64,000 nt of DNA. It comes from Candidatus Yonathbacteria bacterium. GTDB taxonomy: Bacteria; Patescibacteriota; Minisyncoccia; Phycocordibacterales; UBA1550. Of the stretch, positions 3,471 through 19,791 are shown piece by piece. The notes under the pieces are model-generated. The model ran no database searches. It had not been told where the DNA came from and saw only the letters and a program-made list of their open reading frames with translations. The translations under genes were made by a program, and so were the position numbers. How positions within the stretch are numbered: position 1 is the stretch's first letter; the number at the start of each line of letters is the position of its first letter. Location: positions 29,202 through 93,201 of the forward strand of contig DMXP01000005.1 of NCBI GenBank assembly GCA_003483855.1, in the 5' to 3' direction.

Positions 3471-6400
3471 TTATTTTTTCTTATTGAGCGAAATGTCGAG
3501 TGAGAGCCCGCGTAGATAATTTAGAAGCACATTGAACGACTCGGGGATATTTGTGCTTGTGATGTCGTTGCCTTTCACAATAGCGTCAAATGCTTCCGAA
3601 CGACCTGAAATATCGTCTGATTTAATAGTGAGCATTTCACGAAGGACATGCGATGCGCCGTAACCTTCCAGAGCCCACACTTCCATTTCTCCAAAACGCT
3701 GACCTCCACCTTGCGCCTTTCCGCCAAGTGGCTGTTGCGTGATGAGAGAGTACGGCCCGATTGAACGCATGTGGATCTTGTCTTCCACCATGTGGTTTAG
3801 TTTCAAGATGTACATATAACCAACCGCAATATCCTGATCAAACGAGTCTCCAGTGCGTCCGTCAAAGAGTGGCATCTTGCCGTCCTCGCGGTAGCCTGCC
3901 TTCACGAGCTCGCCCTTAATTTCCTCAACTGTTGCTCCCATAAACGGAGGTACGATTGCCTGATAGTTGAGCGTGTGCGCGGCTAGACCCAAGTGAAGCT
4001 CAAGAATTTGTCCCAAGTTCATACGAGAAGGCACGCCGAGCGGAGTAAGCACAACATCAATAGGTGTACCGTCTGCCATGTATGGCATATCCTCCTCAGG
4101 AAGGATTACAGAAATAACACCCTTGTTACCGTGACGTCCCGCAAGCTTGTCGCCCACAGAAATGTTACGCACCTGAGCAACTTCAATGTGAATTTTCTTG
4201 ATGATACCGCTGTCTAGCGCATCGCCCTTTTCGCGCGAGAATACTTTCACACCAATCACGCGTCCACGCTTGCCGTGATCCATGCGAAGCGAAGTGTCTT
4301 TCACGTCGCGAGCCTTGTCTCCGAAAATACTGCGAAGGAGTCGCTCCTCAGGGGTCAATTCTGTCTCACCCTTTGGCGTAATCTTTCCAACCAAAATATC
4401 TCCTGGGTGCACCTCTGCGCCAATACGAATGATGCCGTCTTCGTCCAAGTCTTTGAGCTTGAGCTCACCAACGTTTGGAATATCGTGAGTTGTAACCTCG
4501 GGCCCGAGCTTTGTGTCACGCACATTCACAACAAACTCGTCCATGTGAATAGAAGTAAACTTGCTGTCCTTTACGAGACGCTCCGAAAGAATGATCGCGT
4601 CTTCGTAGTTGGAACCTGCCCATGACATAAACGCAACGAGCGCGTTTTGCCCGATAGCAATCTGACCATTGTCTGAAGACGAAGTGTCAGCAAGTACAGC
4701 TCCCTTCTTCACCTTGTCGCCCACGTTTACAATAGGACGCTGATGGAATGCTGTGAATCCGTTTGTTCGTGAGAATGTTACAAGCTTGTATGAATGTTCC
4801 TTCCCATCTCCACCCTTCAAAACAATTTTTCTTGAATCCGAATGAGTGACAGTGCCATCCACATCCGCAATAACGAGACGACCTGTGTCGCGAGCAGCCA
4901 TTCCCTCCATACCTGTTGCAACCAGCGGAGCCTCTGGCACAACTACTGGGATTGCCTGCTTCTGCATGTTTGAACCCATGAGCGCGCGGTTTGCGTTGTC
5001 GTGTTCCAAAAATGGAATCATGGATGTAGCTACCGAGTATGCTTGGTTTGCTGCGATGTCCATGTAGTGCACATCCGCGCGGTCTACAAGCTCTGGGTGT
5101 CCAGCGCGACGAACCTCAACCTTCTCTTCAACAATGCTGTCACCATCCATTTTCAAAGACGCATGCGCGATGTTGTATTGCTCTTCTTCTAACGCATCCA
5201 TGTACACGATTTCTTTTGTGGTCTTGCCGTTCTTCACCTTTACATAAGGCGTTTCAATCATTCCAAAGTCATTGATGCGCGCATAGCAAGAGAGACGGAG
5301 AATAAGACCGATGTTTGGACCTTCTGGAGTGTGGATAGGGCAAAGGCGTCCGTAGTGCGATGTGTGCACGTCGCGAACTTCAATACCAGCGCGTTCGCGA
5401 GTGAGGCCACCTGGCCCAAGCGCTGAAAATGTGCGGAGAAGCTCAATTTCAGAAAGCACGTTGTACTGACTCATAAACTGAGAGAGCTGGTTTGTCGCAA
5501 AGAATTCCTTTAGTCGCGCCTGAAGCGGGCGAGGAGAAATAAATTGCACAGGCATTGTGGCGTCGGTATCAATTGTGGACATTCTGTCCTGAATATTACG
5601 CTTCATCTGTGTCATACCCACGCGAATCTTTTGCTGGAGCATTTCACCTACAGAGCGAATGCGACGGCTTCCGAGGTGGTCAATATCGTCTGGAAGAGCG
5701 CGAGGGTCTGCGTTTAGCTTTACGATGTGCGAAACGATTGTTGCAACATCACTTGCATCAATAGTGCGTCTTGCAATATCATCTTTATCAAGTCCTTTTC
5801 CAAAACGCTTGTTAAACTTAAAGCGTCCTACTTCTGATAGGTCATACTTCTCCTTTGCAAAAATAGAGTTCACGAAACCGCGAGCATTTTCTGCTGTTGC
5901 AAGGTCGCCATCGCGAAGCTTCTTGTGAATTTCAATAAATGATTCGTCAGGAGTAAGAGCGAGGTCTTTTGCGAGAGTTGCTTCAATCACCTTCTTTACC
6001 GCTTCGTCTTTCTTTGCAAATGCTTTTAGAATTGCTTCATTGTTTTCCAAACCAAGAGCGCGAAGAAGCACGGTTACAGGGAACTTGCGCTTTTTATCAA
6101 TACGCACGTACACCGCTCCGTCTGGATCGGACTCCACCTCTACCCATGCGCCACGGCCTGGGATAATTTTTGCGCCGAAGTAACGCTTGCCCTTGAGCTC
6201 GTCTACGGTGAATGACACACCGAATGAACGAGAAATCTGTGGCACAACCACGCGTTCAACCCCGTTCACGATAAATGTACCGTGCGAGGTCATCATAGGA
6301 AAATCCGCCATAAAGATTTCCTGCTCTTTCTCACTCTTAAACGTTTTGTTTATAAGTTTTACGCGCGCTTTGAGAGGCGCTTCGTAAGAGAGGTTGTTTT

Positions 6401-6623
6401 CTTTTGCAAAATACTCGTCATACTTTGGCGCCGAGAGTTCAATGCCAACGAATTCAAGTTCAAACTTTTTTTCCGAGTAATCTTTAATCGGAGAAAATTC
6501 TTTAAATGCTTCCTTGAGTCCTACTTCGAGAAGCCATTTGTATGACTTCAAGTGTGTCTCTACGAGGTTCGGGAGTTCGATTTGCGGTTTCTTGTACCGC
6601 GCAAAATATTTCTGTTCTCGCAT
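3471..6623 (-). CDS. rpoB: DNA-directed RNA polymerase subunit beta
   Basis: 1050-aa ORF with rpoB hallmarks throughout (MREQKYFARYKKPQIELPNLVETHLKSY..., rifampicin-region and C-terminal GGQRFGEMEVWALEGYGA). The rpoB-rpoC order is conserved. Confidence 0.95.
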   Translation of the reverse strand: MREQKYFARYKKPQIELPNLVETHLKSYKWLLEVGLKEAFKEFSPIKDYSEKKFELEFVGIELSAPKYDEYFAKENNLSYEAPLKARVKLINKTFKSEKEQEIFMADFPMMTSHGTFIVNGVERVVVPQISRSFGVSFTVDELKGKRYFGAKIIPGRGAWVEVESDPDGAVYVRIDKKRKFPVTVLLRALGLENNEAILKAFAKKDEAVKKVIEATLAKDLALTPDESFIEIHKKLRDGDLATAENARGFVNSIFAKEKYDLSEVGRFKFNKRFGKGLDKDDIARRTIDASDVATIVSHIVKLNADPRALPDDIDHLGSRRIRSVGEMLQQKIRVGMTQMKRNIQDRMSTIDTDATMPVQFISPRPLQARLKEFFATNQLSQFMSQYNVLSEIELLRTFSALGPGGLTRERAGIEVRDVHTSHYGRLCPIHTPEGPNIGLILRLSCYARINDFGMIETPYVKVKNGKTTKEIVYMDALEEEQYNIAHASLKMDGDSIVEEKVEVRRAGHPELVDRADVHYMDIAANQAYSVATSMIPFLEHDNANRALMGSNMQKQAIPVVVPEAPLVATGMEGMAARDTGRLVIADVDGTVTHSDSRKIVLKGGDGKEHSYKLVTFSRTNGFTAFHQRPIVNVGDKVKKGAVLADTSSSDNGQIAIGQNALVAFMSWAGSNYEDAIILSERLVKDSKFTSIHMDEFVVNVRDTKLGPEVTTHDIPNVGELKLKDLDEDGIIRIGAEVHPGDILVGKITPKGETELTPEERLLRSIFGDKARDVKDTSLRMDHGKRGRVIGVKVFSREKGDALDSGIIKKIHIEVAQVRNISVGDKLAGRHGNKGVISVILPEEDMPYMADGTPIDVVLTPLGVPSRMNLGQILELHLGLAAHTLNYQAIVPPFMGATVEEIKGELVKAGYREDGKMPLFDGRTGDSFDQDIAVGYMYILKLNHMVEDKIHMRSIGPYSLITQQPLGGKAQGGGQRFGEMEVWALEGYGASHVLREMLTIKSDDISGRSEAFDAIVKGNDITSTNIPESFNVLLNYLRGLSLDISLNKKK

Positions 6624-6820
6624 ATGGTGATGTAACGCGTTAATTACAAAATGCCTCTTAACCCATTATTGGTTGCCCGTAAACAGCAAAAATCAAAAAG
6701 GCACGGAATATCCACCTTTCTGATTAAACAAGGGTATAAAAGACACTTAATACCTATTAAAATTGTACCTCCTCTCTATCGTACGGCGCCAAGTACGCAA
6801 TCAAATTACCGTTAAAAAGC

Positions 6821-6849
6821 AGTATACCAGACTGTAAATTGGTGTCAAT
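6821..6849 (-). promoter_or_regulatory. candidate sigma70-type promoter for rpoBC
   Basis: On the minus strand: TTGACA (rc of 6844-6849), 17-nt spacer, TATACT (rc of 6821-6826). It lies about 195 nt upstream of the rpoB ATG and just downstream of the hairpin at 6855-6881. Confidence 0.4.
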
Positions 6850-6854
6850 GCGTA

Positions 6855-6881
6855 AATTATCCTTACACAGCAAGGATAATT
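6855..6881 (-). terminator. hairpin downstream of the Mrr-cat operon (possible terminator, weak U-tract)
   Basis: Stem aattatcctt / aaggataatt with a 7-nt loop. No clear U-run follows. Confidence 0.3.
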
Positions 6882-6889
6882 CTGAATTT

Positions 6890-7771
6890 CTACTGCCAGG
6901 CTTCATGAAGATGCTCCGCAAGCTTACGCTTCAAGAGACCTCCGTCAATCAATTCCACTGAGTTTGACTTCGCCAAAGCTATCGCTCCTTGTGTAAAATA
7001 TGAAGTCGTTATTACAACTGCTCTTGTACACCCATAATGTACTCGCCCCGCCACCGCTTGCTGAACTGCTTTGTTATCGACAGGATCCTGATAACACTTC
7101 GCTTGAATAAGTATGCTCTCACCATTTTTATTCGCAATAACATCTGCGCCTTGATCACCAGAGCCACCTACTCTTTTACTTGCGTAACCCATCGCGCTAT
7201 AAAGTCGGGCGACAAGATTTTCAAATTCAATTCCACTTTTGCTCAACTCGCTCATGTTGTGCACTGCTTTTGTTCCAATACTTTCATTTAAATATCTATT
7301 CTCTTTTTTATCAATAAAATGTCTCAAGATTACAGAAAGTTCACCATAATCTTTTGTTGATATGGTGATATTTTTTTTATTAGCATTATCACGAAAGTCA
7401 TCGAGACGCTTCCACTCAAACTTGTACCCCCGATATTCCCAAGGTTTAATTTTGCCCTCCTTTCCAAACTGGTCAATGAAGCTGTTTACACTACTCTCAA
7501 AACCAGTATTTGCTATCTGCTCAAGGATACTATCAAGATGACGTTTCGTATTTTCCCTTCTTTTAAATATGTAAAACATATAGGCACCGACAGCTAGGAC
7601 AAGTACCGCAAGTGCAGGAAAAACGTAATGATTCATCTCAAACCAAAAACGATTAGTATCCACGTAGTATACGAATATGAGGTACGCGATACCAAACACA
7701 AATAGACCTGCAACCCCTCTCAAAAAACCATCTTCTTCATTTTCTTTTCTTCTGTAGCGTCTTTTATACAT
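6890..7771 (-). CDS. membrane-anchored restriction-endonuclease-like (Mrr-cat, PD-(D/E)xK) domain protein
   Basis: Two N-terminal TM helices (GVAGLFVFGIAYLIFVYYV and FPALAVLVLAVGAYMFYIF). The C-terminus FENLVARLYSAMGYASKRVGGSGDQGADVIANKNGESILIQAKCYQDPVDNKAVQQAVAGRVHYGCTRAVVITTSYFTQGAIALAKSNSVELIDG matches the Mrr N-terminal catalytic-domain pattern (GDGGID...QCK...ITTS.F). Confidence 0.7.
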   Translation of the reverse strand: MYKRRYRRKENEEDGFLRGVAGLFVFGIAYLIFVYYVDTNRFWFEMNHYVFPALAVLVLAVGAYMFYIFKRRENTKRHLDSILEQIANTGFESSVNSFIDQFGKEGKIKPWEYRGYKFEWKRLDDFRDNANKKNITISTKDYGELSVILRHFIDKKENRYLNESIGTKAVHNMSELSKSGIEFENLVARLYSAMGYASKRVGGSGDQGADVIANKNGESILIQAKCYQDPVDNKAVQQAVAGRVHYGCTRAVVITTSYFTQGAIALAKSNSVELIDGGLLKRKLAEHLHEAWQ

Positions 7772-7836
7772 ATTAGAAACAGTATACCAAATTCAAAACA
7801 ATAATTCCTAGTTCACATAGGCGAGCCCTATGTAAA

Positions 7837-8439
7837 CTACTTCAACTTCCCCTTTCGCCACTTCTCAATCTTTTTGATACCGAGCTTTTTTCCGAGGCAA
7901 TTAACCCATGCCTCGTCAGTCCCCCGAGACGCATAGTGTCTAATGTTGACAACCTTACCGCACCTAATTCTATCCCTAAAGTGCTCATTAAAACATCTCC
8001 ACAAAAAAGATGTGTCTGCACCTAAGGTAATAAATACTGTATCCTTGCCGATTTTAACATCCATCATTTCTTTTTCAAATAAATCTGCGTGTTTTTTAAT
8101 CTTTTCAGGATGCTTATGAAAATAAGATTCTACTTCTCGTGCATTTGCATTCGCATGATACTTAAAAATATCAGTCAGGTAGGAGCCCCTTAGTTTAGTA
8201 TCATTATTGCACGCATACATTAACTTCCTATCATGTTGCCCACCGTGGAAATTTGACCATGATGGTTTCTTCAAGTCTTTTGATATATTTAAACCAACAA
8301 ACACATATCTCGTATTCAGTTGAGCAACACTTTCATCAATAACAGATGTATCATTCTGGTCATTTTCATCCCAAATCGCCCAACTGGAACATGGGCCGTA
8401 TTCCATGCTTAATTTTTCATATTCATTAGTGGTATACAT
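7837..8439 (-). CDS. hypothetical protein with weak UDG-superfamily-like motifs
   Basis: 200 aa. Its start codon abuts the stop of the upstream gene (TAA-ATG junction at 8437-8442), which suggests translational coupling. YVFVGLNISKD and VVNIRHYASRG loosely resemble UDG-fold motif A (G-x-N-P-G) and motif B (H-P-S). No confident family assignment. Confidence 0.5.
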   Translation of the reverse strand: MYTTNEYEKLSMEYGPCSSWAIWDENDQNDTSVIDESVAQLNTRYVFVGLNISKDLKKPSWSNFHGGQHDRKLMYACNNDTKLRGSYLTDIFKYHANANAREVESYFHKHPEKIKKHADLFEKEMMDVKIGKDTVFITLGADTSFLWRCFNEHFRDRIRCGKVVNIRHYASRGTDEAWVNCLGKKLGIKKIEKWRKGKLK

Positions 8440-9183
8440 TTAATCAATAACATACCCATCTACTTTTTGAGAGTGGAACAGTGTTGTATTTGAAACAACA
8501 GTGACTCCATTATCCCACGCCTCAACACTATAGCCATGGGTGAACGGGGTAAGCAAGACATCATCTGGGATATCCACGAAATGCTCTGTTGAGTAACCAG
8601 AAGACGAGGGGAAGAAAGTGACTGAATTAGGACCATAAGTATACAAAACTAGCCGTGAATTAGCTGGAATATTTGTTCTCCATGAGAAACGACCTGAGTT
8701 ATTAATATTAGTTATACCTCTCAGTAAAATTGACAGTGCAGGGACATCCTCTTGAGATATCTGAGTTTGTACAGGTTGAACTAAAACGGATGGGATAATT
8801 ACTGCTTCCTTTATCCATCGAACAACATTTCCTCTTGCATCAATCTCGGCAACAGCACCATTTTGAAATGTTACGATACTAGTCTTTGACTCGTCCTGTT
8901 TTTGTGCTACCTGTGGTTCGGGTGTAACTTGCTTTTTAGGTGATACAACCACAGAGTTTTTACTTTTTTTTGTAGCTACTTCTTTTTGTTGAGAAACTTC
9001 CCCCGAACTTGTTGCAGTTGTTGTCGCTTTTTTATTTTCAAAATTTACATCATGAGTTTGCTCAACTCTCACTTCTGCTGGTCTACTAAAAATCTTCCAA
9101 GAAAACGGATTCCACCATGAAGCCAGCGCAATCTGTGGCACAATAAGCGTAGCTACAGCCAAAGAGATCAAGATTTTTTTCAT
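8440..9183 (-). CDS. secreted hypothetical protein (signal peptide)
   Basis: N-terminus MKKILISLAVATLIVPQIALASWW is a typical signal peptide. The rest shows no recognisable domain. Confidence 0.55.
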   Translation of the reverse strand: MKKILISLAVATLIVPQIALASWWNPFSWKIFSRPAEVRVEQTHDVNFENKKATTTATSSGEVSQQKEVATKKSKNSVVVSPKKQVTPEPQVAQKQDESKTSIVTFQNGAVAEIDARGNVVRWIKEAVIIPSVLVQPVQTQISQEDVPALSILLRGITNINNSGRFSWRTNIPANSRLVLYTYGPNSVTFFPSSSGYSTEHFVDIPDDVLLTPFTHGYSVEAWDNGVTVVSNTTLFHSQKVDGYVID

Positions 9184-9221
9184 ACCAATATGGTACTCCT
9201 CTTCCCTCAGATAAGCAACAT

Positions 9222-9635
9222 TTATTCCTCTGACTTCTTCACTTCTCTTTCCTTACTTCGTGTAGTTGAACCATACATAAAAACTCCTACAAGTGATGCA
9301 AGAGTACCCACGCCGATTATACCGCCAGCAATGGCATTCCCATAGATAGAGATGATTGCGGAAACAACAAGCCCAGCAACAGCAATAACAAAACCAAGAA
9401 TTTGACCCCATTTTGAACGAGCAATGTCGGAACTAATTACCTTTTGCTCAAGATCTTTTCTGTGCGCAGATTGGTCTTCTGCCATCTTGATTATTCTTTC
9501 AGCCGAACCAGGAACTACTTCTTCAAACTTGCGCAGAATGTCTGGATGAGGAAGCGGTCCAGAAAACGACTGCACAGAGTGCTGTTGAACTACTACACCA
9601 TTCTGATTATGCTGTCTTTGTAAGCCCTTGCTCAT
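9222..9635 (-). CDS. DUF2335-like membrane protein
   Basis: PHPDILRKFEEVVPGSAERIIKMAEDQSAHRKDLEQK followed by two TM helices resembles the DUF2335 predicted-membrane-protein pattern. It overlaps the upstream small gene by 29 nt. Confidence 0.55.
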   Translation of the reverse strand: MSKGLQRQHNQNGVVVQQHSVQSFSGPLPHPDILRKFEEVVPGSAERIIKMAEDQSAHRKDLEQKVISSDIARSKWGQILGFVIAVAGLVVSAIISIYGNAIAGGIIGVGTLASLVGVFMYGSTTRSKEREVKKSEE

Positions 9636-9828
9636 AATTTTTTATAGAAAACTTTAAGTCCTCGCCAACTGCACCCCAATCACTCTTTAACGCTTTTATA
9701 TCAGCCTCCTGTTCTGTTTCTGAAATATTGTAATCCTGTAGTGTCGCTCCTAAATCAAGAATGCGCGACATACCCTCAAGAAATGATGGTTCTGCAAAAA
9801 GCCTGCTAGAAGAATAGATATTTTTCAT
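9607..9828 (-). CDS. small hypothetical protein (74 aa)
   Basis: The ORF 9607..9918 is trimmed to the internal Met (MKNIYSSSRLFAEPSF...). The upstream extension overlaps the trmD terminator hairpin. First gene of a 5-gene minus-strand operon. Confidence 0.45.
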   Translation of the reverse strand: MKNIYSSSRLFAEPSFLEGMSRILDLGATLQDYNISETEQEADIKALKSDWGAVGEDLKFSIKNYEQGLTKTA

Positions 9829-9868
9829 ATTGAAAGTATAACAAATCGAGTTTATATATACAAATGCA

Positions 9869-9896
9869 GAAACCGCAACACGGGGTTGCGGTTTCG
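9869..9896 (-). terminator. hairpin terminator downstream of trmD
   Basis: gaaaccgcaac-acgggg-gttgcggtttc, an 11-bp perfect stem. On the minus strand it is followed by TGCATTTGTATATATA. Confidence 0.45.
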
Positions 9897-10103
9897 CGTC
9901 CTGCCACCGAAGCGACAAGAGGTATGAATTAAAGATACCTTACCTCTATGCAAATTGCAAGCAGTTATCCACAGCCTCAAAACCTACCTCATCTTCCCTC
10001 TCCTCCACTCTTGAATTAGCAAATTCACTTACGTGTCATATCTTCTTATGGTCGCCCGACGAAATTTCCTTTTAGAAATTTTTTCGGGTAAACCACCCGA
10101 GGA

Positions 10104-11456: not shown

Positions 11457-13265
11457 TTAAGACAAGGTTGCCTTTATACGGCGAACGCCAGCTGACGACG
11501 CCTCCTCTTTCACAATTTTAAACTTCCCCATTCCTTCTGTTTTTTCTACGTGAGGTCCACCACAAAGCTCTGCGGAGTATTGTGTGCCGTCTGGTGAAGC
11601 AACAGAGTACACATTAACCACATCTGGATACTTCTCCCAGAAACTTCCTTCCGCCCCACGCGCTTTCGCTTCTTCTTTTTTCATCTGCTCAATTTTTACC
11701 GCGCATCCTTTCGCAATCGCCTCATTTACATACGCTTCCACCTTGTCTAAAACGTCCCGCTCTACTTTTTGCGGATATGTGAAATCAAAACGGGTTCTTT
11801 CTTCTGTAATATTTGAACCTGCCTGATGCACATCGTTTCCTAAATATTTGCGAAGGCCCGCGAGCATTAGGTGGGTCGCTGTATGAAGCGCGGTTGTCTT
11901 TATGCTCGCATCCGCGAGCCCACCTTTAAACTTCCCCTCTGCGCCTGCGCGCGAAAGCTCCTGATGTTTTTTGAAATCCTCGTCGTACCCCGCTCTGTCC
12001 ACAGAAACATGATGCTCCTCCGCGAGCTCCTCTGTCATCTCTATTGGGAAACCGTATGTTGAAAACAACTTAAACGCGTCGTCCCCAGAAATTGTTTTAT
12101 TTTCAAAAAGTCGAGCAATCTCTTTTGTTCCACGCTCAAGTGTTTTTCTAAACCTGTCTTCCTCCTCCCAAATTTCTTTTACAATAATATCGGTTTGTTC
12201 AAAAACATTGTCGTACACTCCGCGATATTTTTCTGCAATCACAGGAACAAGTTCAGAAAGCATATTGTGCCCTATGCCAAGTATGTCTGAATAACGAACA
12301 GCGCGACGAAGAAGTCTGCGCAAAATGTATCCTTGGTCGGTGTTTGACGGTCGCACTCCATCCGCAATAATCATCACAGCGGTACGCACGTGGTCTGCCA
12401 CGATACGCGATGCGCGAATGTGTTTAACATCAACAGGAATATCTCCGCCAGCCAAATCTGCAATCTTTTGCATTATCGGCGCAAACAAATCCGTCTCAAA
12501 CACATTGTCTTTCCCTTGTATCGCCATAACCACACGCTCTAGCCCTGAGCCTGTGTCAACATTTTTCTGCGCTAGTCTTCCAATCACCTTGCCGTCTTTT
12601 TTCTCGTACTCCATAAACACGTCGTTCCAAACCTCCACGATATCCTGCCTATCATCTGCCGTTAGATATTCCTCCTTTGTCATCTCGCCTAGCCCATTTT
12701 CGGTAATATCGTAAAACATTTCTGTGTCGGGACCGCATGGGCCGTTGTCTCCTGGGCTCCACCAGTTGGACTTTGCAGACATAAAATAAATATGACTGTC
12801 CGGCATATAGTTTCGCCAAATATCAAGCGCTTCGTTGTCGCGCGGAGCATCATCATTGCCTTCAAAAACAGTTACATACAAACGCGACGGATCCAAACCA
12901 AGCCCCTCGTCTTTTGATGTCAAAAATTCAAAACTCCACTGAATAGCTTCTTCTTTGAAATAATCTCCAAGCGACCAGTTGCCAAGCATTTCAAAAAAAG
13001 TGTCATGAGTTTTGTCACCCACTTCCTCAATGTCCTGCGTGCGAACACACTTCTGGCTGTTCACGAGTCGCTTCCCGCTTGGATGCGGTGTGCCCATTAG
13101 GTACGGCGCGAGCGGTTGCATTCCAGCAGTATTAAAAAGCACCGAGGGGTCATTCTCGGGAACAAGTGGCGCCGAGGGAATAATCGTATGCCCGCGCTTC
13201 TCAAAAAACTTTAAAAATCTGTCGCGAATTTCTCGGGAGTCCATCCCAATAGAAGTTTTGTCCAT
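11457..13265 (-). CDS. alaS: alanine--tRNA ligase, short form lacking the C-Ala domain
   Basis: N-terminal class II catalytic core (FLKFFEKRGHTIIPSAPLVPENDPSVLFNTAGMQP). The editing domain has HTATHLM...CGGPHV. Only 602 aa. Confidence 0.92.
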   Translation of the reverse strand: MDKTSIGMDSREIRDRFLKFFEKRGHTIIPSAPLVPENDPSVLFNTAGMQPLAPYLMGTPHPSGKRLVNSQKCVRTQDIEEVGDKTHDTFFEMLGNWSLGDYFKEEAIQWSFEFLTSKDEGLGLDPSRLYVTVFEGNDDAPRDNEALDIWRNYMPDSHIYFMSAKSNWWSPGDNGPCGPDTEMFYDITENGLGEMTKEEYLTADDRQDIVEVWNDVFMEYEKKDGKVIGRLAQKNVDTGSGLERVVMAIQGKDNVFETDLFAPIMQKIADLAGGDIPVDVKHIRASRIVADHVRTAVMIIADGVRPSNTDQGYILRRLLRRAVRYSDILGIGHNMLSELVPVIAEKYRGVYDNVFEQTDIIVKEIWEEEDRFRKTLERGTKEIARLFENKTISGDDAFKLFSTYGFPIEMTEELAEEHHVSVDRAGYDEDFKKHQELSRAGAEGKFKGGLADASIKTTALHTATHLMLAGLRKYLGNDVHQAGSNITEERTRFDFTYPQKVERDVLDKVEAYVNEAIAKGCAVKIEQMKKEEAKARGAEGSFWEKYPDVVNVYSVASPDGTQYSAELCGGPHVEKTEGMGKFKIVKEEASSAGVRRIKATLS

Positions 13266-13393: not shown

Positions 13394-13876
13394 CTAATCC
13401 TCAGGAGAAAAATGCGCGAGAGCTTTGACCTTGTTTTCTATGTACCAGAGACCGGTAAAAATAAACAACGCGAATACTGTCGCAATGACCGCCAAAACAT
13501 AATATCCATACCCTATTGCCACGCCCACGCCGGCGGCAACCCAAATGCCTGCCGCAGTTGTAACCCCGCTAACTTTTGAGCCCTTGAAAATAATGAGGCC
13601 AGCGCCGATGAAACCGATTCCCTGAATAATAGCAGCGGTAACGCGCGCTGATGAATCTGTAAACATTGTGGCGTTGGAACCGTAACCGCCCGATGCAAGC
13701 ACTCCGACAATTACAAAGAGAGCCGAGCCCATAGTCACGAAACCGTATGTGCGCATACCGGCAGTCTTGCCAGCAAGCGCGCGCTCAATGCCAAGCGACA
13801 TTCCTAAAAACATCGCTGTGAACAACTTGAGAATAATTTCCAAATCTTGACTGCTTAAAAGTGTTGTGATGTCCAT
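13394..13876 (-). CDS. MgtC/SapB family membrane protein
   Basis: FTAMFLGMSLGIERALAGKTAGMRTYGFVTMGSALF matches the MgtC N-terminal domain. About four TM segments. Confidence 0.8.
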   Translation of the reverse strand: MDITTLLSSQDLEIILKLFTAMFLGMSLGIERALAGKTAGMRTYGFVTMGSALFVIVGVLASGGYGSNATMFTDSSARVTAAIIQGIGFIGAGLIIFKGSKVSGVTTAAGIWVAAGVGVAIGYGYYVLAVIATVFALFIFTGLWYIENKVKALAHFSPED

Positions 13877-13896: not shown

Positions 13897-14760
13897 TTAA
13901 AATTCCTGACAGACTTGATCAACTTCTTCTACTACTCTTCCAATCTGTTCATCCGTAAAGCCAATTGATTTCAATGGAGCTGGATTATTCTTTAAATCGC
14001 GACACATCACAATTCCTTGTTCAAGTAAATTATTTTTGTCACTCTGACTAAGTGTAGAAAGAAATGTAAGCGGATGCACTCCCGTTTCCAAGATTAAATC
14101 CTGCAAATTGCCTTTTTCAGGATAGTCCCAGCCAATCACAGTGAGCCCAGAGCAATTCGCATATTGAATTGCATCACTCGTGAGCTTAGTGTTTGTAATG
14201 AGCCACCCCTCGTGAACTTTCTTTACCTCTCCTTCGTGTCTTTTATGCGCTTCATCGTGAGCTTTCTGCAAATCCATAAATCGCGCACGGACATAAAGCG
14301 CGACCTTCACGTCTGTTTTTATACCTTGCTGATTGTGGAACTTGCACTCTGCAAAAATATGCCTGTCGCCTTTTTCCATAAGCACGTCCACCTCGTGATC
14401 AACACAAAATCCCTGTAGAATTACACCTGTCTCTGCAGTGTAACCCTTTCCACGCAAAACTTCCGCGACAAATTTTTCAAATGGAAATCCGCTAGGCCCG
14501 AGCTCTAGCACTGCTTTCCTTAGCGAATAACGAATAGCGGCAGGATATTTTTTTTTCTTGAGAATAGAGTACGCGTGCTTGTAAATCTGCGAAGTCTTCA
14601 TCCCCTCGTGAAGCTCTGGGAGAATGTGCTCAACTATACGCTCTATAGTTTCATCGTCTGCACCAGAACGCGTAAGCGAACGACGAAGTTTATTAAGAGA
14701 AAATCGCTCACGCTCGCCAGTGCTTTTTATGACCCACACGTCATCTTGCTCTTTGTTCAT
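13897..14760 (-). CDS. ATP-cone domain fused to restriction-endonuclease-like PD-(D/E)xK domain protein
   Basis: N-terminus VWVIKSTGERERFSLNKLRRSLTRSGADDETIERIVEHI is an ATP-cone. The middle FEKFVAEVLRGKGYTAETGVILQGFCVDHEVDVLMEKGDRHIFAECKFHN is a D..EVD...ECK nuclease core. Start trimmed to MNKEQDD. Confidence 0.7.
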   Translation of the reverse strand: MNKEQDDVWVIKSTGERERFSLNKLRRSLTRSGADDETIERIVEHILPELHEGMKTSQIYKHAYSILKKKKYPAAIRYSLRKAVLELGPSGFPFEKFVAEVLRGKGYTAETGVILQGFCVDHEVDVLMEKGDRHIFAECKFHNQQGIKTDVKVALYVRARFMDLQKAHDEAHKRHEGEVKKVHEGWLITNTKLTSDAIQYANCSGLTVIGWDYPEKGNLQDLILETGVHPLTFLSTLSQSDKNNLLEQGIVMCRDLKNNPAPLKSIGFTDEQIGRVVEEVDQVCQEF

Positions 14761-14786
14761 ATTCCTTAGTTTAACACAATGAATAG

Positions 14787-14824
14787 GCAAAAGAAAAAGG
14801 TCGAGCTAAGATACTAGCTCGACC
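14787..14824 (-). terminator. rho-independent terminator
   Basis: Perfect 10-bp stem ggtcgagcta / tagctcgacc followed on the minus strand by tttttcttttgc. It lies about 320 nt downstream of the mnmA stop. Confidence 0.5.
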
Positions 14825-15143
14825 TTGCTAAGATACTTTGGGGGATCGCAAACTCTCCAAAGGGTTGCTGTCGTGGGATGCCGTATGCAACCGTGCCTCT
14901 TTAATTCAACCCCAAGTGAAGACATAAATACCTCAGAGATTCACTGTGCACAAATAAACACTATCACAAGAATGCAATTTTGTCTATATTTTTTTATTTA
15001 TTGTAATGTCGTGCACCAGTCTTTGCGAGCAGAGCGAAGCAAGCCAGGATTATGTGCGACAAGCTCTGGATTGCTTCGTTGTACCTCCTCGCAAAGACAA
15101 TGCCGAGAGACATCGCTACAAACCATCAACTAACGACTATTGG

Positions 15144-16268
15144 CTATCCCACTATTCCGCCACCAATACACTCTTTCCCATCATACAAAACTACTGATTG
15201 CCCTGCGTCAAAAACTGCTGGCTTTTCGAGGCGCAATGAAAAAGAATTTTCATTAACACTAGCAATCTTGCATTTGTACTGCTCGCCGTGGTAGCGCACC
15301 TGCGCGGTATATTTCCTTGCAGTATCAGGAATCGTTCCACTACAAAAACTCGCCTGCTCGGCTCGTAGCTCCTGCGAGGCGCACCCCAGTGCCTTTTTTG
15401 TATGAGGTGCAACCGTAATTGTATTTTTTTCAAAATCTTTTGCCACAACATAGAGTGGCGCATCGTCAGTACCTTTCTTCGTAACCATAAATCCATGACG
15501 TTCGCCAAGCGTAAAAAAGTATGTGCCACGATGCGTACCGATTATCTCGCCTTTTCCATTCAGCACACTTCCCTCTTTCTCCTCAATATAGTTCGCGAGA
15601 AAATCCTTCATATCAAGCTTGCCCACAAAACACAGTCCTTGCGAATCTTTTTTCTCCGCAACTGGCAAACCAAACTTTTTCGCAAGAGCGCGCACTTGCG
15701 ACTTTTTGTAACCGCCAATCGGGAAAAATGTTTTGCTCAGCTGTTCCTTTCCTAGTGTCCACAAAAAATACGATTGATCCTTGGTATCATCAACTCCCTT
15801 TAGCATTCTGTGTTTGCATTCACTTTTGACTTTTGACTTTTGACTTCGAATCAGCTGATTCGCGTCTTGGACGCAGACTACCTTTGCGTAGTGTCCTGTC
15901 GCCACAAAGTCCGCTCCCTCTTTCATGGCTCGTCTAAAAAATGCGCCAAACTTTACCTCGCGGTTGCACATTACATCGGGGTTCGGCGTGCGACCCTGCC
16001 TGTACTCCGCAATCATATAATCCGCCACGCCTTCTTTGTATTCCTTTTCAAAATCCCACGTGAGGAGGGGGATGCCAAGGGGCGCAGAAACGCGCATTGC
16101 GTCCAAACGCTCCTCACGCCACGTGCATGGCAAAAAATCCGGTTGCCATACCTTCATAAAAACACCCGTAACATCGTACCCTGCTTTTTGTAAAAGCGCT
16201 GCAGAAACTGACGAATCCACTCCGCCTGACATTCCAACATATACTTTACCCTTCGACTTTCTATTCAT
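15144..16268 (-). CDS. mnmA: tRNA-specific 2-thiouridylase
   Basis: VYVGMSGGVDSSVSAALL (PP-loop), ...KDQSYFL..., and a C-terminal beta-barrel. Contains an in-frame repeat-derived insertion (see repeat 15823-15874). Confidence 0.9.
   Translation of the reverse strand: MNRKSKGKVYVGMSGGVDSSVSAALLQKAGYDVTGVFMKVWQPDFLPCTWREERLDAMRVSAPLGIPLLTWDFEKEYKEGVADYMIAEYRQGRTPNPDVMCNREVKFGAFFRRAMKEGADFVATGHYAKVVCVQDANQLIRSQKSKVKSECKHRMLKGVDDTKDQSYFLWTLGKEQLSKTFFPIGGYKKSQVRALAKKFGLPVAEKKDSQGLCFVGKLDMKDFLANYIEEKEGSVLNGKGEIIGTHRGTYFFTLGERHGFMVTKKGTDDAPLYVVAKDFEKNTITVAPHTKKALGCASQELRAEQASFCSGTIPDTARKYTAQVRYHGEQYKCKIASVNENSFSLRLEKPAVFDAGQSVVLYDGKECIGGGIVG
15823..15874. repeat. 3x ttttgac heptamer plus 27-bp double palindrome (gaatcagctgattc + cgtcttggacg) embedded in frame in mnmA
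   Basis: cacttttgacttttgacttttgacttcGAATCAGCTGATTCgCGTCTTGGACG. The same double palindrome occurs at 54743-54770 and 57053-57080. Confidence 0.55.
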
Positions 16269-17403: not shown

Positions 17404-18639
17404 TTAAATTGGCAAATTGACTGGCGCTTCTGACTTGCGTGAGGGAATACGACCGAATGTAGGTGTCTGCGCAACACCTCCTGGGAAGTGATAAATAGTG
17501 GCGAGCTCCTCTGTGGTAAGCACAAACGGTTTCAACTTGCGTGGCAAGTGGAACCACGAGCGTTGCTTGTAAGCTTCAAACATATCTACCTTTTTCCAAG
17601 TAAGACGCGTCTTGTCATAATCCTCCCACGGGAAATCCCATCCGTATGTTTGCTCACCACCTTTGAATGAGTTTAGATTGTTTGAAGTAAACGGGCGCAA
17701 TAGACCACCTAGCGCTTTTATATGACCAAAATCTGCTTTGTCCTTCTTCCCAAGATATATCGCGCGAATACCGCAATCAAAACCGAGCTTGTTTATACTA
17801 CGCTCAATAGCAGCAACGGCGTCTTGTTCGCCCTTGGTGGTCATAAAAAGTTTAGCAAAGCCTTCATCAGTTTTCTGGTCACGCTTCATTATCCTTTCGA
17901 TTAGCGCTTTCCCTTCATCTTGCCATGTACCAATACTGCTATCGGCTTTTTTATATCGCTTGCTTGCCGACTGAACAAGTATCTGAATCCAAATCTGCTC
18001 ATCCTTCCCAATTGACCCTAAGTACTCAATAATAGAAGTGATTGGATCAATTTTGAACTCCTCTTTCACACCCTCTTTGTCCATACCGTAGTCAACATAA
18101 GTTTTTATTGGATACGCGTCTTCTTTTGAGAGAGTGTATTCGGAGCTAATCATTTCCCATTCGCCCTTTTTGCCCCTGTAGTCCACATAGCGTGTGTAGT
18201 CTGGGACCTCGTGTATTTCTATATCAGGATACTGCGCGTAAAGTTGCGCCTCTATAACATTTTTATAAAATGCGCCTGTGCGAATAAAAAAGTGGACATT
18301 TCCATCTAGAGAAACCATCTCTAGAGAAAACCAATCCTTTACTTTTCCTTTCCAGTATTTGTCCCACCAAACAATCTTGCCGGATGACTGATAAAGCGCG
18401 TTTAACATAATCTCCATCGCAAGCGGAGTTTTGTGAATCTCCTTTGGAATCTTGACCTCGAGCATTATCCAATTGATGCGTGAGATATATCGCCCCTGCA
18501 CATAATGCATCCATTGATGCAAAAATAAATAACCTAGAAAAATCGGGCCCCAATAAGGGAACCATGCAAAAAAAGTTGATAGAAGAGAAACAACCTGCGC
18601 GTATAACTCGCTAAATCCGAGAGACTGAATTAAATCCAT
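17404..18639 (-). CDS. hypothetical membrane protein
   Basis: 412 aa from MDLIQSLGFSELY with two N-terminal TM helices. No recognisable domain. A predicted promoter sits immediately upstream. Confidence 0.55.
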   Translation of the reverse strand: MDLIQSLGFSELYAQVVSLLSTFFAWFPYWGPIFLGYLFLHQWMHYVQGRYISRINWIMLEVKIPKEIHKTPLAMEIMLNALYQSSGKIVWWDKYWKGKVKDWFSLEMVSLDGNVHFFIRTGAFYKNVIEAQLYAQYPDIEIHEVPDYTRYVDYRGKKGEWEMISSEYTLSKEDAYPIKTYVDYGMDKEGVKEEFKIDPITSIIEYLGSIGKDEQIWIQILVQSASKRYKKADSSIGTWQDEGKALIERIMKRDQKTDEGFAKLFMTTKGEQDAVAAIERSINKLGFDCGIRAIYLGKKDKADFGHIKALGGLLRPFTSNNLNSFKGGEQTYGWDFPWEDYDKTRLTWKKVDMFEAYKQRSWFHLPRKLKPFVLTTEELATIYHFPGGVAQTPTFGRIPSRKSEAPVNLPI

Positions 18640-18646
18640 ATTTCCT

Positions 18647-18674
18647 ATGATAACACACGGGGAACAATTGACAA
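18647..18674 (-). promoter_or_regulatory. candidate sigma70-type promoter (TTGTCA-16nt-TATCAT), short or no leader
   Basis: Minus strand: TTGTCA (rc of 18669-18674), 16-nt spacer, TATCAT (rc of 18647-18652), 7 nt, then ATG at 18639. It overlaps the caattgacaattgaca motif. Confidence 0.35.
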
Positions 18675-18682
18675 TTGACATG

Positions 18683-18723
18683 TAACCAAAAAAGCGCGTT
18701 TCCGCGTAGCGGAAACGCGCTTT
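18683..18723 (-). terminator. rho-independent terminator after the sigma-like gene
   Basis: aaagcgcgtttccgc-gtag-gcggaaacgcgcttt, a perfect 15-bp stem. The minus strand continues with TTTTTTGG. Confidence 0.6.
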
Positions 18724-18762
18724 AGTCAATTGTTAATGGTCACATGTCAAATGTTCCCCCTC

Positions 18763-19791
18763 TTACGCCAACGCGTATTTCCCGTCCTTTGTTCTCTTGA
18801 ACATCTTTGGGTCCTGAAGATTTACAAAGACTGTATTTTCTTTTACATAACGCTCTTTGAGTACACGGTCAATGATATCTTTTTTTGCAAGTGGTCCTTC
18901 CTTTTTGAGAACCTTTGCGATTACATCCTTCACAACACCTTTTTCGTAACCCCATGACGATAGAGCATACAGACCGCGACCGACTAGCACAAAACGTTTG
19001 TCTTTTATAAGCTCATTGTGACATGTTGCTACGTGCGCTTTTTTGCCAAAAATCTGAGTGATTGACTTTGCAACCTCTGTAAAGTGCATAGGTGAACCGT
19101 GCTTGCGAATAATAAGGTACGCATAATCGCGCATTCCGCGGGCATTTACATTGTGTGACTCTGTAACACCCCACTCGCCAAGAGGGTTTCTTGCAATTGT
19201 TTTCGAAAGCGCCAACCAACGCTTTGTGATTTCCTCGTTTTTATACTCTTCAGAAACATCCTTGAGGTGACTCAAAAATGCTGCGATGATTTCACTTTCA
19301 GGAACCAAATCCTCATGAGTAAGTGTTTTGTAAAGGTCGCGAATAGCATCATGGACCTTCATAGAAACTTTGTCGTCAACGATCCAGCGATGGCGAAAAT
19401 TCTCATCCTCTTTTTCACGTTTAAACTGGTCACCGAGAACAAGCAAAAAATACAGGTGGTTCTGCGTACCTTCGTCCTTAGATATATGCATCAAAAAATC
19501 TTCCTCGCACACGACTCCGCCCAATGACACTACTAGCTTATTCAATTCTTCAAATACGTCCGCTTCCTTTTTGAACGCGTCGGATTTCTTGATGGCGCCC
19601 AAAGCAAAGTTTTCAATCTGGCGAACGCGCTCGCGTGTTATACCATATGATTTGCCTATACCCTCAAGTGTCATACGATCGGTACTTTCACCCAAACCGT
19701 AGCGCCTTATCATCATATCAAGGGCGCGAGGCGAAAGAGAAGCGAGTAATCGTTTTACGACTTGTTTTGGCTTAAATGTTATGGCTGACAT
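18763..19791 (-). CDS. sigma-70 region-4-like HTH protein with extended C-terminal domain
   Basis: N-terminus RRYGLGESTDRMTLEGIGKSYGITRERVRQIENFALGAIKK is a sigma-70 region 4 HTH. The remaining ~260 aa are unassigned. Confidence 0.6.
   Translation of the reverse strand: MSAITFKPKQVVKRLLASLSPRALDMMIRRYGLGESTDRMTLEGIGKSYGITRERVRQIENFALGAIKKSDAFKKEADVFEELNKLVVSLGGVVCEEDFLMHISKDEGTQNHLYFLLVLGDQFKREKEDENFRHRWIVDDKVSMKVHDAIRDLYKTLTHEDLVPESEIIAAFLSHLKDVSEEYKNEEITKRWLALSKTIARNPLGEWGVTESHNVNARGMRDYAYLIIRKHGSPMHFTEVAKSITQIFGKKAHVATCHNELIKDKRFVLVGRGLYALSSWGYEKGVVKDVIAKVLKKEGPLAKKDIIDRVLKERYVKENTVFVNLQDPKMFKRTKDGKYALA

Follow-up and report, generated by a model that had tools for sequence, protein, structure and literature searches.

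Gene T and its flanking signals

We analysed a 64,000-nt stretch of DNA from a Candidatus Yonathbacteria bacterium (assembly GCA_003483855.1, contig DMXP01000005.1, positions 29,202 to 93,201), here called the window, and in it one gene whose product joins an ATP-cone to a nuclease domain. This ATP-cone/nuclease protein, for which T is used as shorthand, is encoded at window positions 13897..14760 on the minus strand, as are all window genes and features given below. Its complete coding sequence of 287 aa plus stop was defined by the list of open reading frames, direct reading of the sequence and coverage by homologues. Database proteins 95-96% identical to T were likewise 287 aa long with a query coverage of 100%, and a Shine-Dalgarno-like AAGGA (14763..14767) was found 2 nt 5' of the ATG at 14760. 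With this ribosome-binding site and the full-length homologues, the open reading frame described by an earlier sequence-only reading of the same DNA proved to be real and its coordinates correct.

An alternative longer start, the TTG at 14790, falls within the T-run that follows the 13-bp stem of a terminator-like hairpin located between mnmA and T (14797..14826). This hairpin suggests that a separate transcription unit begins with T in the host genome. The mnmA-T spacer was unusually long, ~380 nt (14797..15143), and the strong hairpin closes it just before the T start. Relatives at 85-95% identity had short mnmA-T spacers with a different hairpin and did not keep the spacer sequence; one 95%-identical relative (L001) carried a hairpin of another sequence at the equivalent position. 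A riboswitch or attenuator in the 380-nt spacer was considered and rejected, since Rfam gave nothing above 24 bits, with matches on the hairpin only, and the spacer is not conserved, which leaves a terminator-like hairpin.

The N-terminal ATP-cone

As defined by Pfam, residues 10-77 of T (14530..14733) form an ATP-cone domain, and the fold, supported by Foldseek and by conservation, spans about residues 8-86. In the scan of the whole protein, PF03477 matched with E=1.2e-7 and 32.6 bits (cut-off 25.8), and homologues from other phyla scored 25-34 bits. AlphaFold2, supplied with 45 diverse relatives, gave a model with a predicted local distance difference test (pLDDT) score of 94.8 and a predicted template-modelling score (pTM) of 0.90; pLDDT was >94 in the cone region, and the model showed the beta-hairpin lid and four-helix cone of this fold. 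Its N-terminus superposed in Foldseek on the E. coli NrdR ATP-cones with a root-mean-square deviation (rmsd) of 1.8-2.0 A over 80-85 residues at 26% identity. Furthermore, a profile of the family's cone region alone retrieved NrdR, NrdD and NrdA among PDB structures; higher-scoring PDB matches to designed helical-repeat proteins were discarded as repeat or low-complexity artefacts.

Conservation was counted in an alignment of 557 distinct members of the T family. Within the cone, the best-kept residues were K12 (551/552), G15 (552/552), F20 (529/552), K24 (544/553), T56 (540/554) and Y78 (546/556). In a BLASTP alignment to E. coli NrdR, V10, K12, E18 and F20 of T fell on Val51, Lys53, Glu59 and Phe61, while K24, L25, T56 and I59 fell on Lys65, Leu66, Ser105 and Ile108; the NrdR sequence used agrees with all 17 residue identities given in bioRxiv 10.1101/2025.03.28.645925. 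Of these NrdR residues, Val51, Lys53, Glu59, Phe61, Lys65, Leu66 and Ile108 are described as inner-site contacts of the adenine nucleotide, and Ser105 is not named among them (bioRxiv 10.1101/2025.03.28.645925). Most of the T positions that match NrdR contacts are also the best-conserved cone positions of the family. Judging from these residues, T is likely to bind adenine nucleotides.

The sequence-only reading had placed an ATP-cone at the N-terminus, and this was borne out by the PF03477 score, the superposition on NrdR cones and the retained ligand positions. Both profile checks that it had proposed, for the ATP-cone and for a PD-(D/E)xK nuclease, gave scores above threshold (32.6 vs 25.8 and 26.7 vs 21 bits), and the structure prediction that it had called for yielded a confident model whose N-terminus lies on NrdR cones and whose remainder lies on the crystal structure 1Y88.

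The nuclease core and the C-terminal domain

Behind the cone, residues 91-206 (14143..14490) make up a PD-(D/E)xK nuclease domain of the AF1548/Mrr type, assigned by PF04471, the match to 1Y88 and structure. The domain opens with an invariant LGPxGFPFE linker, followed by the first helix. In Pfam, Mrr_cat (PF04471) matched T with E=6.5e-6 and 26.7 bits (cut-off 21). PDB entry 1Y88 (AF1548) aligned with residues 97-283 at E=3.5e-30, and the T model beyond the cone superposed on it in Foldseek with a template-modelling (TM) score of 0.81 on the target.

The residues expected for catalysis were almost free of substitution. The helix-1 glutamate E95 (codon 14476..14478), the aspartate D125 of the HEVD motif (codon 14386..14388), K140, R160 and D163 were each kept in 557/557 members, and E138 and E123 each in 556/557; E138, C139 and K140 constitute the ExK motif (codons 14341..14349). 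In AF1548, the nuclease residues D38, E51 and K53 were predicted in silico in the Global Ocean Sampling paper (PMC1821046). The spacing of D125-13-E138-x-K140 in T equals that of AF1548 D38/E51/K53, so that D125 matches the predicted AF1548 aspartate by its 13/2 spacing. As read from the alignment, the conserved catalytic set of T is E95, D125, E138 and K140, plus E123, and the conservation makes it likely that T is an active nuclease.

The alignment of catalytic residues to the nuclease core, on which the sequence-only reading depended, thus held for E95, D125, E138 and K140 in 556-557 of 557 members. Its motif, D..EVD...ECK, is present as C119-V-D121-H122-E123-V-D125...E138-C-K140, except that the first aspartate, D121, is not conserved. 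Conservation extended to four cysteines of the nuclease and C-terminal domains, C119 and C203 (each 551/557), C253 (506/555) and C284 (440/480), and to H122 (547/557); the cysteines could be structural, or could form a metal or Fe-S site.

The C-terminal region of ~130 aa proposed earlier was only partly a domain of its own: up to about residue 212 it still belongs to the nuclease, whose fold it completes, and the separate domain comprises roughly 56-75 aa. Residues 230-283 (13912..14073) were assigned to an AF1548-like C-terminal domain with a small helical SAM/HhH-like fold on the basis of PF22357 and a domain model. The AF1548-like_C profile (PF22357) gave 22.9 bits in the whole-protein scan, below the cut-off of 23.9, and 26.0 bits, which passes, when the domain was scanned alone. 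Modelled alone, the domain reached pLDDT 82, and its best match was the C-terminal domain of 1Y88 (TM-score 0.81 on the query, rmsd 1.9 A); weaker matches (E 0.3-3, TM-score 0.5-0.65) were to RAD51/RadA N-terminal domains, the C-terminal domain of RNA polymerase alpha, BAF and SAM domains. Because of the SAM/HhH-like fold of the model, the domain probably binds nucleic acid through the backbone and without sequence specificity.

A large family with one architecture

The T query alone retrieved 3,636 clusters at 90% identity, and a profile search of the family retrieved >5,300 such clusters. At 50% identity, 460 clusters matched at E<1e-30 and shared an architecture of about 262-293 aa; nearly all of their representatives were full length at about 275-295 aa. 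At least 596 species-level genomes carried the family. A single three-domain architecture was found in Patescibacteria, Bacteroidota, Dependentiae, Archaeoglobales, Korarchaeota, Bathyarchaeia and DPANN. Among bacteria, the hosts were many Patescibacteria (Paceibacteria/Parcubacteria), Dependentiae and, as a large share, Bacteroidota, including Pontibacter, Cyclobacterium, Tenacibaculum, Chitinophaga, Flavobacterium and Saprospiraceae; among archaea, they were Archaeoglobus, Geoglobus, Ferroglobus, Korarchaeota, Bathyarchaeia, Aenigmarchaeota and Altiarchaeales. The family had been said to occur in archaea and Patescibacteria, and both do hold it, but its range is much wider, with Bacteroidota contributing a large share and Dependentiae also represented. 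We regard the T family as large, ancient and architecturally rigid, and its members as probable soluble three-domain enzymes.

Apparent relatives without a cone did not hold up. Cone-less bacterial proteins of about 211-222 aa look like truncated gene calls: one such representative lies on a 959-nt contig, and another shares its 90% cluster with a 280-aa three-domain protein. The archaeal case is AF1548 itself, whose crystal chain starts at ...VARLLEE, inside the conserved FEKF helix and after the cone (vs P0395/P0413). A 265-aa protein 99% identical to this chain carries a canonical cone, MLRVRKRDGRLEEF..., and so do all Archaeoglobales relatives; therefore the 1Y88 chain is to be read as N-terminally truncated, and the cone-less AF1548 was rejected as a truncated model. 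On this comparison of sequences, the original AF1548 gene model, and hence 1Y88, the sole solved structure of the family, appears to lack its N-terminal part.

Members are named "ATP cone domain-containing protein", "restriction endonuclease", "ATPase" and, by the Joint Genome Institute (JGI), "Holliday junction resolvase" in databases. The literature search found no functional study of an ATP-cone/nuclease fusion. The earlier description of the family as experimentally uncharacterised therefore stands as far as function goes, although the nuclease half has a crystal structure (1Y88) and an in-silico prediction (PMC1821046). The gene itself is not a new discovery, because NCBI and UniRef names, Pfam and PDB 1Y88 already cover both the family and its set of domains.

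Gene neighbourhood in the window and in Patescibacteria

In the window, the gene order is leuS, a sigma-r4/HARE-HTH protein, a conserved 441-aa protein, mltG, mnmA, the hairpin, T, and then, after 20 nt, an mgtC-family gene, alaS, a KH protein gene and trmD. The upstream neighbour mnmA (tRNA 2-thiouridylase, 15144..16268, identified by Pfam) is taken as context and not as a clue to function. The gene 20 nt 3' of T (13394..13876) encodes an MgtC-family membrane protein (PF02308, 108 bits) and is the probable operon partner of T in the window.

To place this arrangement among relatives, 57 Patescibacteria genome loci were surveyed, with denominators that vary by item (48, 53 or 58). A same-strand mnmA lay within 1.5 kb upstream of T in 38/48 loci. 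Directly downstream, an MgtC gene was found in 20/53 loci, a Cas4-like nuclease in 10/53 and an HD 5'-deoxynucleotidase-like protein in 6/53; further downstream followed a family-4 uracil-DNA glycosylase (25/58 loci) and then alaS. The same mnmA–T–mgtC…alaS block was recovered in 19 independent metagenome loci of the Patescibacteria type, with MgtC directly downstream in 13 of them. When the same pairs of Patescibacteria genomes were compared, median identity was 48% for T, 51% for MnmA, 43% for MltG, 56% for alanyl-tRNA synthetase (AlaRS) and 46% for MgtC. These data indicated that T behaves in Patescibacteria as a vertically inherited, core-like maintenance gene.

Several neighbours deserve a record of their own. 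The 441-aa protein (17404..18729) has no Pfam match and is conserved in 38 Patescibacteria loci, where it always adjoins the 342-aa protein (18763..19791) with Sigma70 region 4 and HARE-HTH domains; both are uncharacterised and syntenic with mltG-mnmA. Typical bacterial AlaRS has ~870 aa. The enzyme of the window (11457..13265) has just 602 aa, comprising the catalytic core and the SAD domain, and related Patescibacteria loci also encode a short AlaRS of about 580-650 aa. Elsewhere in the window, a 293-aa restriction endonuclease of the canonical Mrr type (6890..7771; Mrr_cat 101.9 bits, C-terminal) lies between rpoB and trmD, beside unannotated reading frames and a DUF2335 membrane protein. 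This gene is part of a low-GC stretch at ~6000-10000 (GC 0.39-0.41 vs about 0.45 elsewhere), and the patch is possibly a small acquired defence islet.

Gene contexts outside Patescibacteria

In Bacteroidota and related metagenome contigs, T was followed on the same strand by genes for a beta-CASP/RMMBL metallo-hydrolase of ~457 aa, an AMP/thymidine-phosphorylase-like protein that exceeds the cut-offs of PRK04350 and TIGR02645, and a phosphoribosyl pyrophosphate (PRPP)-synthetase-like protein (Prs-like; PRK07199 above cut-off). Among 29 genome loci, the beta-CASP gene was present in 12, the phosphorylase-like gene in 7 and the Prs-like gene in 7. In the 39 independent metagenome loci that reach 3 kb or more beyond T on its downstream side, the corresponding counts were 18, 13 and 11, and any of the three genes was found in 19. 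Three adjacent genes of the same types, bll3115 (metallo-beta-lactamase hydrolase), bll3116 (Prs) and bll3117 (thymidine-phosphorylase family), are all counted in the core microoxic proteome in Bradyrhizobium diazoefficiens (PMC6515984); the likeness to the Bacteroidota module is one of gene type.

In two contigs of metagenome-assembled genomes (MAGs) labelled Nitrososphaera (L008 3078-5917, L024), R15P isomerase, type III RuBisCO, AMP phosphorylase and T are consecutive, with RuBisCO and phosphorylase scoring above their equivalog cut-offs. T was not accepted as a general member of an archaeal AMP/RuBisCO (pentose-bisphosphate) operon, as the arrangement was seen only in these two related contigs; it is one example of a broader link to nucleoside monophosphate (NMP)/thymidine-phosphorylase-like genes. 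RuBisCO is unexpected for Nitrososphaera, and for this reason the bin assignment of the two contigs may be wrong.

Membrane transporters and stress proteins formed another group of neighbours. We found the arrangements CorA–T–DUF389 in Ferroglobus placidus, MscS–T in Archaeoglobus, amino-acid permease/Usp–T in Geoglobus, amino-acid permease–T in a Bacteroidota-type contig, Usp–T in Crocinitomicaceae, a Ca/Mg-type P-ATPase adjoining T in Bacteroidota, T–MgtC/DUF4010–PPK2 in Saprospiraceae, T–Na/Pi cotransporter in one metagenome contig (L094) and DUF5676–T–FtsW in Dependentiae. The lineage closest to the "Nitrososphaera" T (metagenome contigs L095-L106) showed the order CsoR-like repressor–T–CopA…multicopper oxidase, that is, T inserted in a copper-resistance operon. 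The stop and start codons of transporter–T gene pairs often overlap.

Among 53 non-redundant loci outside Patescibacteria, 33 had a neighbour within 5 nt of T. A tightly linked neighbour with at least three transmembrane segments, by a crude hydropathy count, was found in 24 of the 53; against a background of 12% per gene, or ~23% for either side, the binomial p was about 3e-4, a statistic that ignores residual kinship among the loci.

In Bacteroidota, T was also located on an island with Cus/HMBD metal-resistance genes that shows 97.8% nucleotide identity over 8.9 kb between a Flavobacterium sp. and a Sediminibacterium MAG; a Saprospiraceae genome matches at 82-88% over about 10 kb. The island (L081 compared with L045 and L083) measures roughly 9-10 kb and contains a heavy-metal ATPase, CusA/B, a Ca/Mg-type P-ATPase, T and beta-CASP. 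Such similarity indicates recent horizontal transfer across Bacteroidota orders, or an error of binning. The genomic-context survey proposed by the sequence-only reading thus yielded a conserved housekeeping block in Patescibacteria, and transporters and nucleotide catabolism elsewhere.

Proposed function and alternatives

The cone contacts and the catalytic residues are both under strong purifying selection, and for this reason a nucleotide-regulated, catalytically active nuclease is the natural reading of T. Taken as a composite, the proposal that T is an adenine-nucleotide-gated nuclease which serves stress responses or nucleotide and ion homeostasis, and not immunity, has in our estimate about an even chance of being right. 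With ATP, dATP or lower adenylates bound in the cone, the oligomeric state or the packing of the domains would change, and cleavage would be turned on or off; by analogy with ribonucleotide reductase (RNR) and NrdR, the nuclease would probably be switched through oligomerisation. Judged by gene context, its role would lie in chromosomal housekeeping or stress, with nucleic-acid cleavage tied to the adenylate, nucleotide or cation economy. In the window, T would be co-expressed with the MgtC-family membrane protein, within the mnmA–T–mgtC…alaS block.

Several points weigh against this proposal. For every member of the family, the binding of adenine nucleotides, the gating of cleavage and the choice of DNA or RNA as substrate are predictions. 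Tyr131 of NrdR, the outer-site residue that discriminates ATP from dATP, has no confident counterpart in the T alignment, so that the effector may be ATP, dATP or another adenine nucleotide, bound at one site or two. The 64-kb window contains no AMP phosphorylase, beta-CASP, Prs or RuBisCO gene, and the adjacency to RuBisCO and AMP phosphorylase did not recur in the closest metagenome relatives of the L008 and L024 T. The horizontally transferred Bacteroidota island would also suit an accessory or defence function. Finally, the contexts are heterogeneous, ranging over housekeeping genes, metal-resistance islands, transporters and nucleotide catabolism, and none of them dictates a mechanism.

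A specific role in salvage or Mg2+ homeostasis is less likely than not. One explicit version, which we regard as rather unlikely, would make T an adenylate-gated endonuclease, possibly gated by ATP/Mg2+ or another adenine nucleotide, that responds to energy, oxygen or cation stress with the bulk breakdown of nucleic acid, for example rRNA. The products would feed the beta-CASP exonuclease and a salvage route of the NMP-phosphorylase/PRPP type, and bound Mg2+ would be released, which would explain why T shares operons with genes for CorA, MgtC, P-type ATPases, Usp and PPK2. Bacteria of the candidate phyla radiation (CPR) lack de novo nucleotide synthesis and need scavenged nucleotides. If bulk breakdown were true, it would represent the first function of an ATP-cone outside the control of dNTP synthesis, and it would fill in a step that is missing upstream in the nucleotide scavenging of CPR bacteria.

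Comparably unlikely is a housekeeping nuclease of DNA repair or recombination, structure-specific in the manner of a resolvase or flap nuclease and tuned by dATP/ATP to the dNTP supply. The HhH/SAM-like C-terminal domain resembles the DNA-binding N-terminal domains of RAD51/RadA, Patescibacteria neighbours include family-4 uracil-DNA glycosylase (25/58), Cas4-like nuclease (19/58) and HD 5'-deoxynucleotidase-like genes (10/58), RuvB lies two genes from T in Dependentiae, and some members carry the JGI label "Holliday junction resolvase". However, the Hjc Pfam profile matched homologues only at E=0.035-0.13, below threshold, and Geoglobus encodes a genuine Hjc as well, 2 kb away from T. The repair-gene neighbours are moreover confined to Patescibacteria, where long-range synteny is kept anyway, whereas the tight partners elsewhere are transporters and nucleotide-catabolic genes.

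The sequence-only reading had likened T to the logic of nucleotide-depletion defence, and the corresponding alternative is an anti-phage or anti-mobile-element nuclease, Mrr-like or acting by abortive infection, whose cone senses a (d)NTP pool disturbed by infection and releases DNA cleavage. Homology to Mrr_cat speaks for it, as do the design analogy to the ligand-gated CARF-PD-(D/E)xK nucleases Can2 and Cdn1, which were among the Foldseek matches, and, in Bacteroidota, the position of T on a horizontally mobile island, close to a TrwB-like gene in one locus. The surveys did not bear the analogy out, and a defence role is improbable. The best PADLOC E-value with T was 0.02, Pfam found no Mrr_N or other modification-reader domain in T, whose N-terminus is the ATP-cone, and no defence gene stood beside T in any Pfam-annotated locus surveyed. 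IMG/VR held no relative of T and BFVD gave single-domain matches only, none of them full-length; a viral origin of the gene was rejected on the same grounds. In Patescibacteria, T shows core-like synteny, within a housekeeping block, and a housekeeping evolutionary rate, and the canonical Mrr of the same window, with its 101.9 bits and low-GC patch, shows that a real restriction gene looks different.

Two further alternatives are both very improbable. T might be a non-catalytic, NrdR-like nucleotide-sensing regulator in which the nuclease fold and HhH domain merely bind DNA: its cone is most similar to NrdR cones, some PD-(D/E)xK folds are inactive binding modules, and homologues gave a weak NA-iREase1 match (E about 0.03), but retention of E95, D125, E138 and K140 in 556-557 of 557 members is unexpected for an inactivated fold, and T has no Zn-ribbon and scores 18 bits against the NrdR model TIGR00244 (cut-off 124.65). 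A mobile-element function, such as island maintenance or a transfer nuclease, would fit the near-identical islands in different Bacteroidota orders and the metal-resistance cargo and TrwB-like gene that flank T, but no integrase or transposase consistently adjoins it, and in Patescibacteria, Dependentiae and Archaeoglobales it is chromosomal among housekeeping genes.

Significance

The literature searched treats ATP-cones solely as switches, either of ribonucleotide reductases or of the repressor NrdR. In T, a switch of the same kind is joined to a nuclease that is conserved throughout, and the fusion occurs in thousands of lineages of bacteria and archaea. Should the cone gate cleavage, T would be a simple nucleotide-controlled nuclease and a new link between the adenylate state of the cell, the turnover of nucleic acids and its ion or stress physiology. 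What this analysis newly contributes is evidence against a role in defence, a set of conserved operon partners, the dichotomy between mobile and core settings, and the recognition that 1Y88 is without the cone. Cultivable hosts of T homologues include Pontibacter roseus, Cyclobacterium lianum, Ferroglobus placidus and Geoglobus species.

Comparison with known systems

The nearest relative with a structure is AF1548 of Archaeoglobus fulgidus (1Y88; PF04471 plus PF22357), which belongs to the same family and shares the nuclease core and C-terminal domain with T. Its crystal chain starts after the cone, whereas T has the cone, and no AF1548 activity is reported.

By profile and structure, the cone closest to that of T is the one of NrdR, the Zn-ribbon/ATP-cone repressor of RNR genes, with matched inner-site adenine contacts. 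The output of NrdR follows from its oligomeric state, which is set by the nucleotides loaded (bioRxiv 10.1101/2025.03.28.645925). T differs in that it starts with the cone and is without the Zn-ribbon, and in that its output domain is a nuclease instead of the DNA-binding finger; it fails the NrdR equivalog (TIGR00244, 18 bits vs 124.65), and NrdR has about 150 aa. No link of T to nrd genes was seen in any locus surveyed. The ATP-cones of RNRs (NrdA, NrdD, NrdB) share fold and family with the T cone and act as N-terminal allosteric on/off modules via oligomerisation; they regulate a reductase, whereas the cone of T is joined to a nuclease.

Among nucleases, the type IV restriction endonuclease Mrr has the Mrr_cat catalytic fold in common with T. 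T scores 26.7 bits where the Mrr of the window scores 101.9, and it differs in having no N-terminal modified-DNA reader and in its context and evolutionary behaviour. The archaeal Holliday-junction resolvase Hjc gave no Pfam match to T itself at E<=1.

The CARF-PD-(D/E)xK nucleases of type III CRISPR signalling (Can2, Card1, Cdn1) resemble T in design, as they combine a sensor of small nucleotides with a nuclease of the restriction-endonuclease fold. T is not a member of this group, since its sensor is an ATP-cone and not CARF and it has no CRISPR or defence context; CARF/Can2-like matches came through its nuclease part only (PADLOC E 0.02; Foldseek E 3e-4, TM-score 0.28). An ATP-cone that controls a nuclease, an arrangement not characterised as a system, would be a variant that combines the allostery of ATP-cones with that of the ligand-gated PD-(D/E)xK nucleases.

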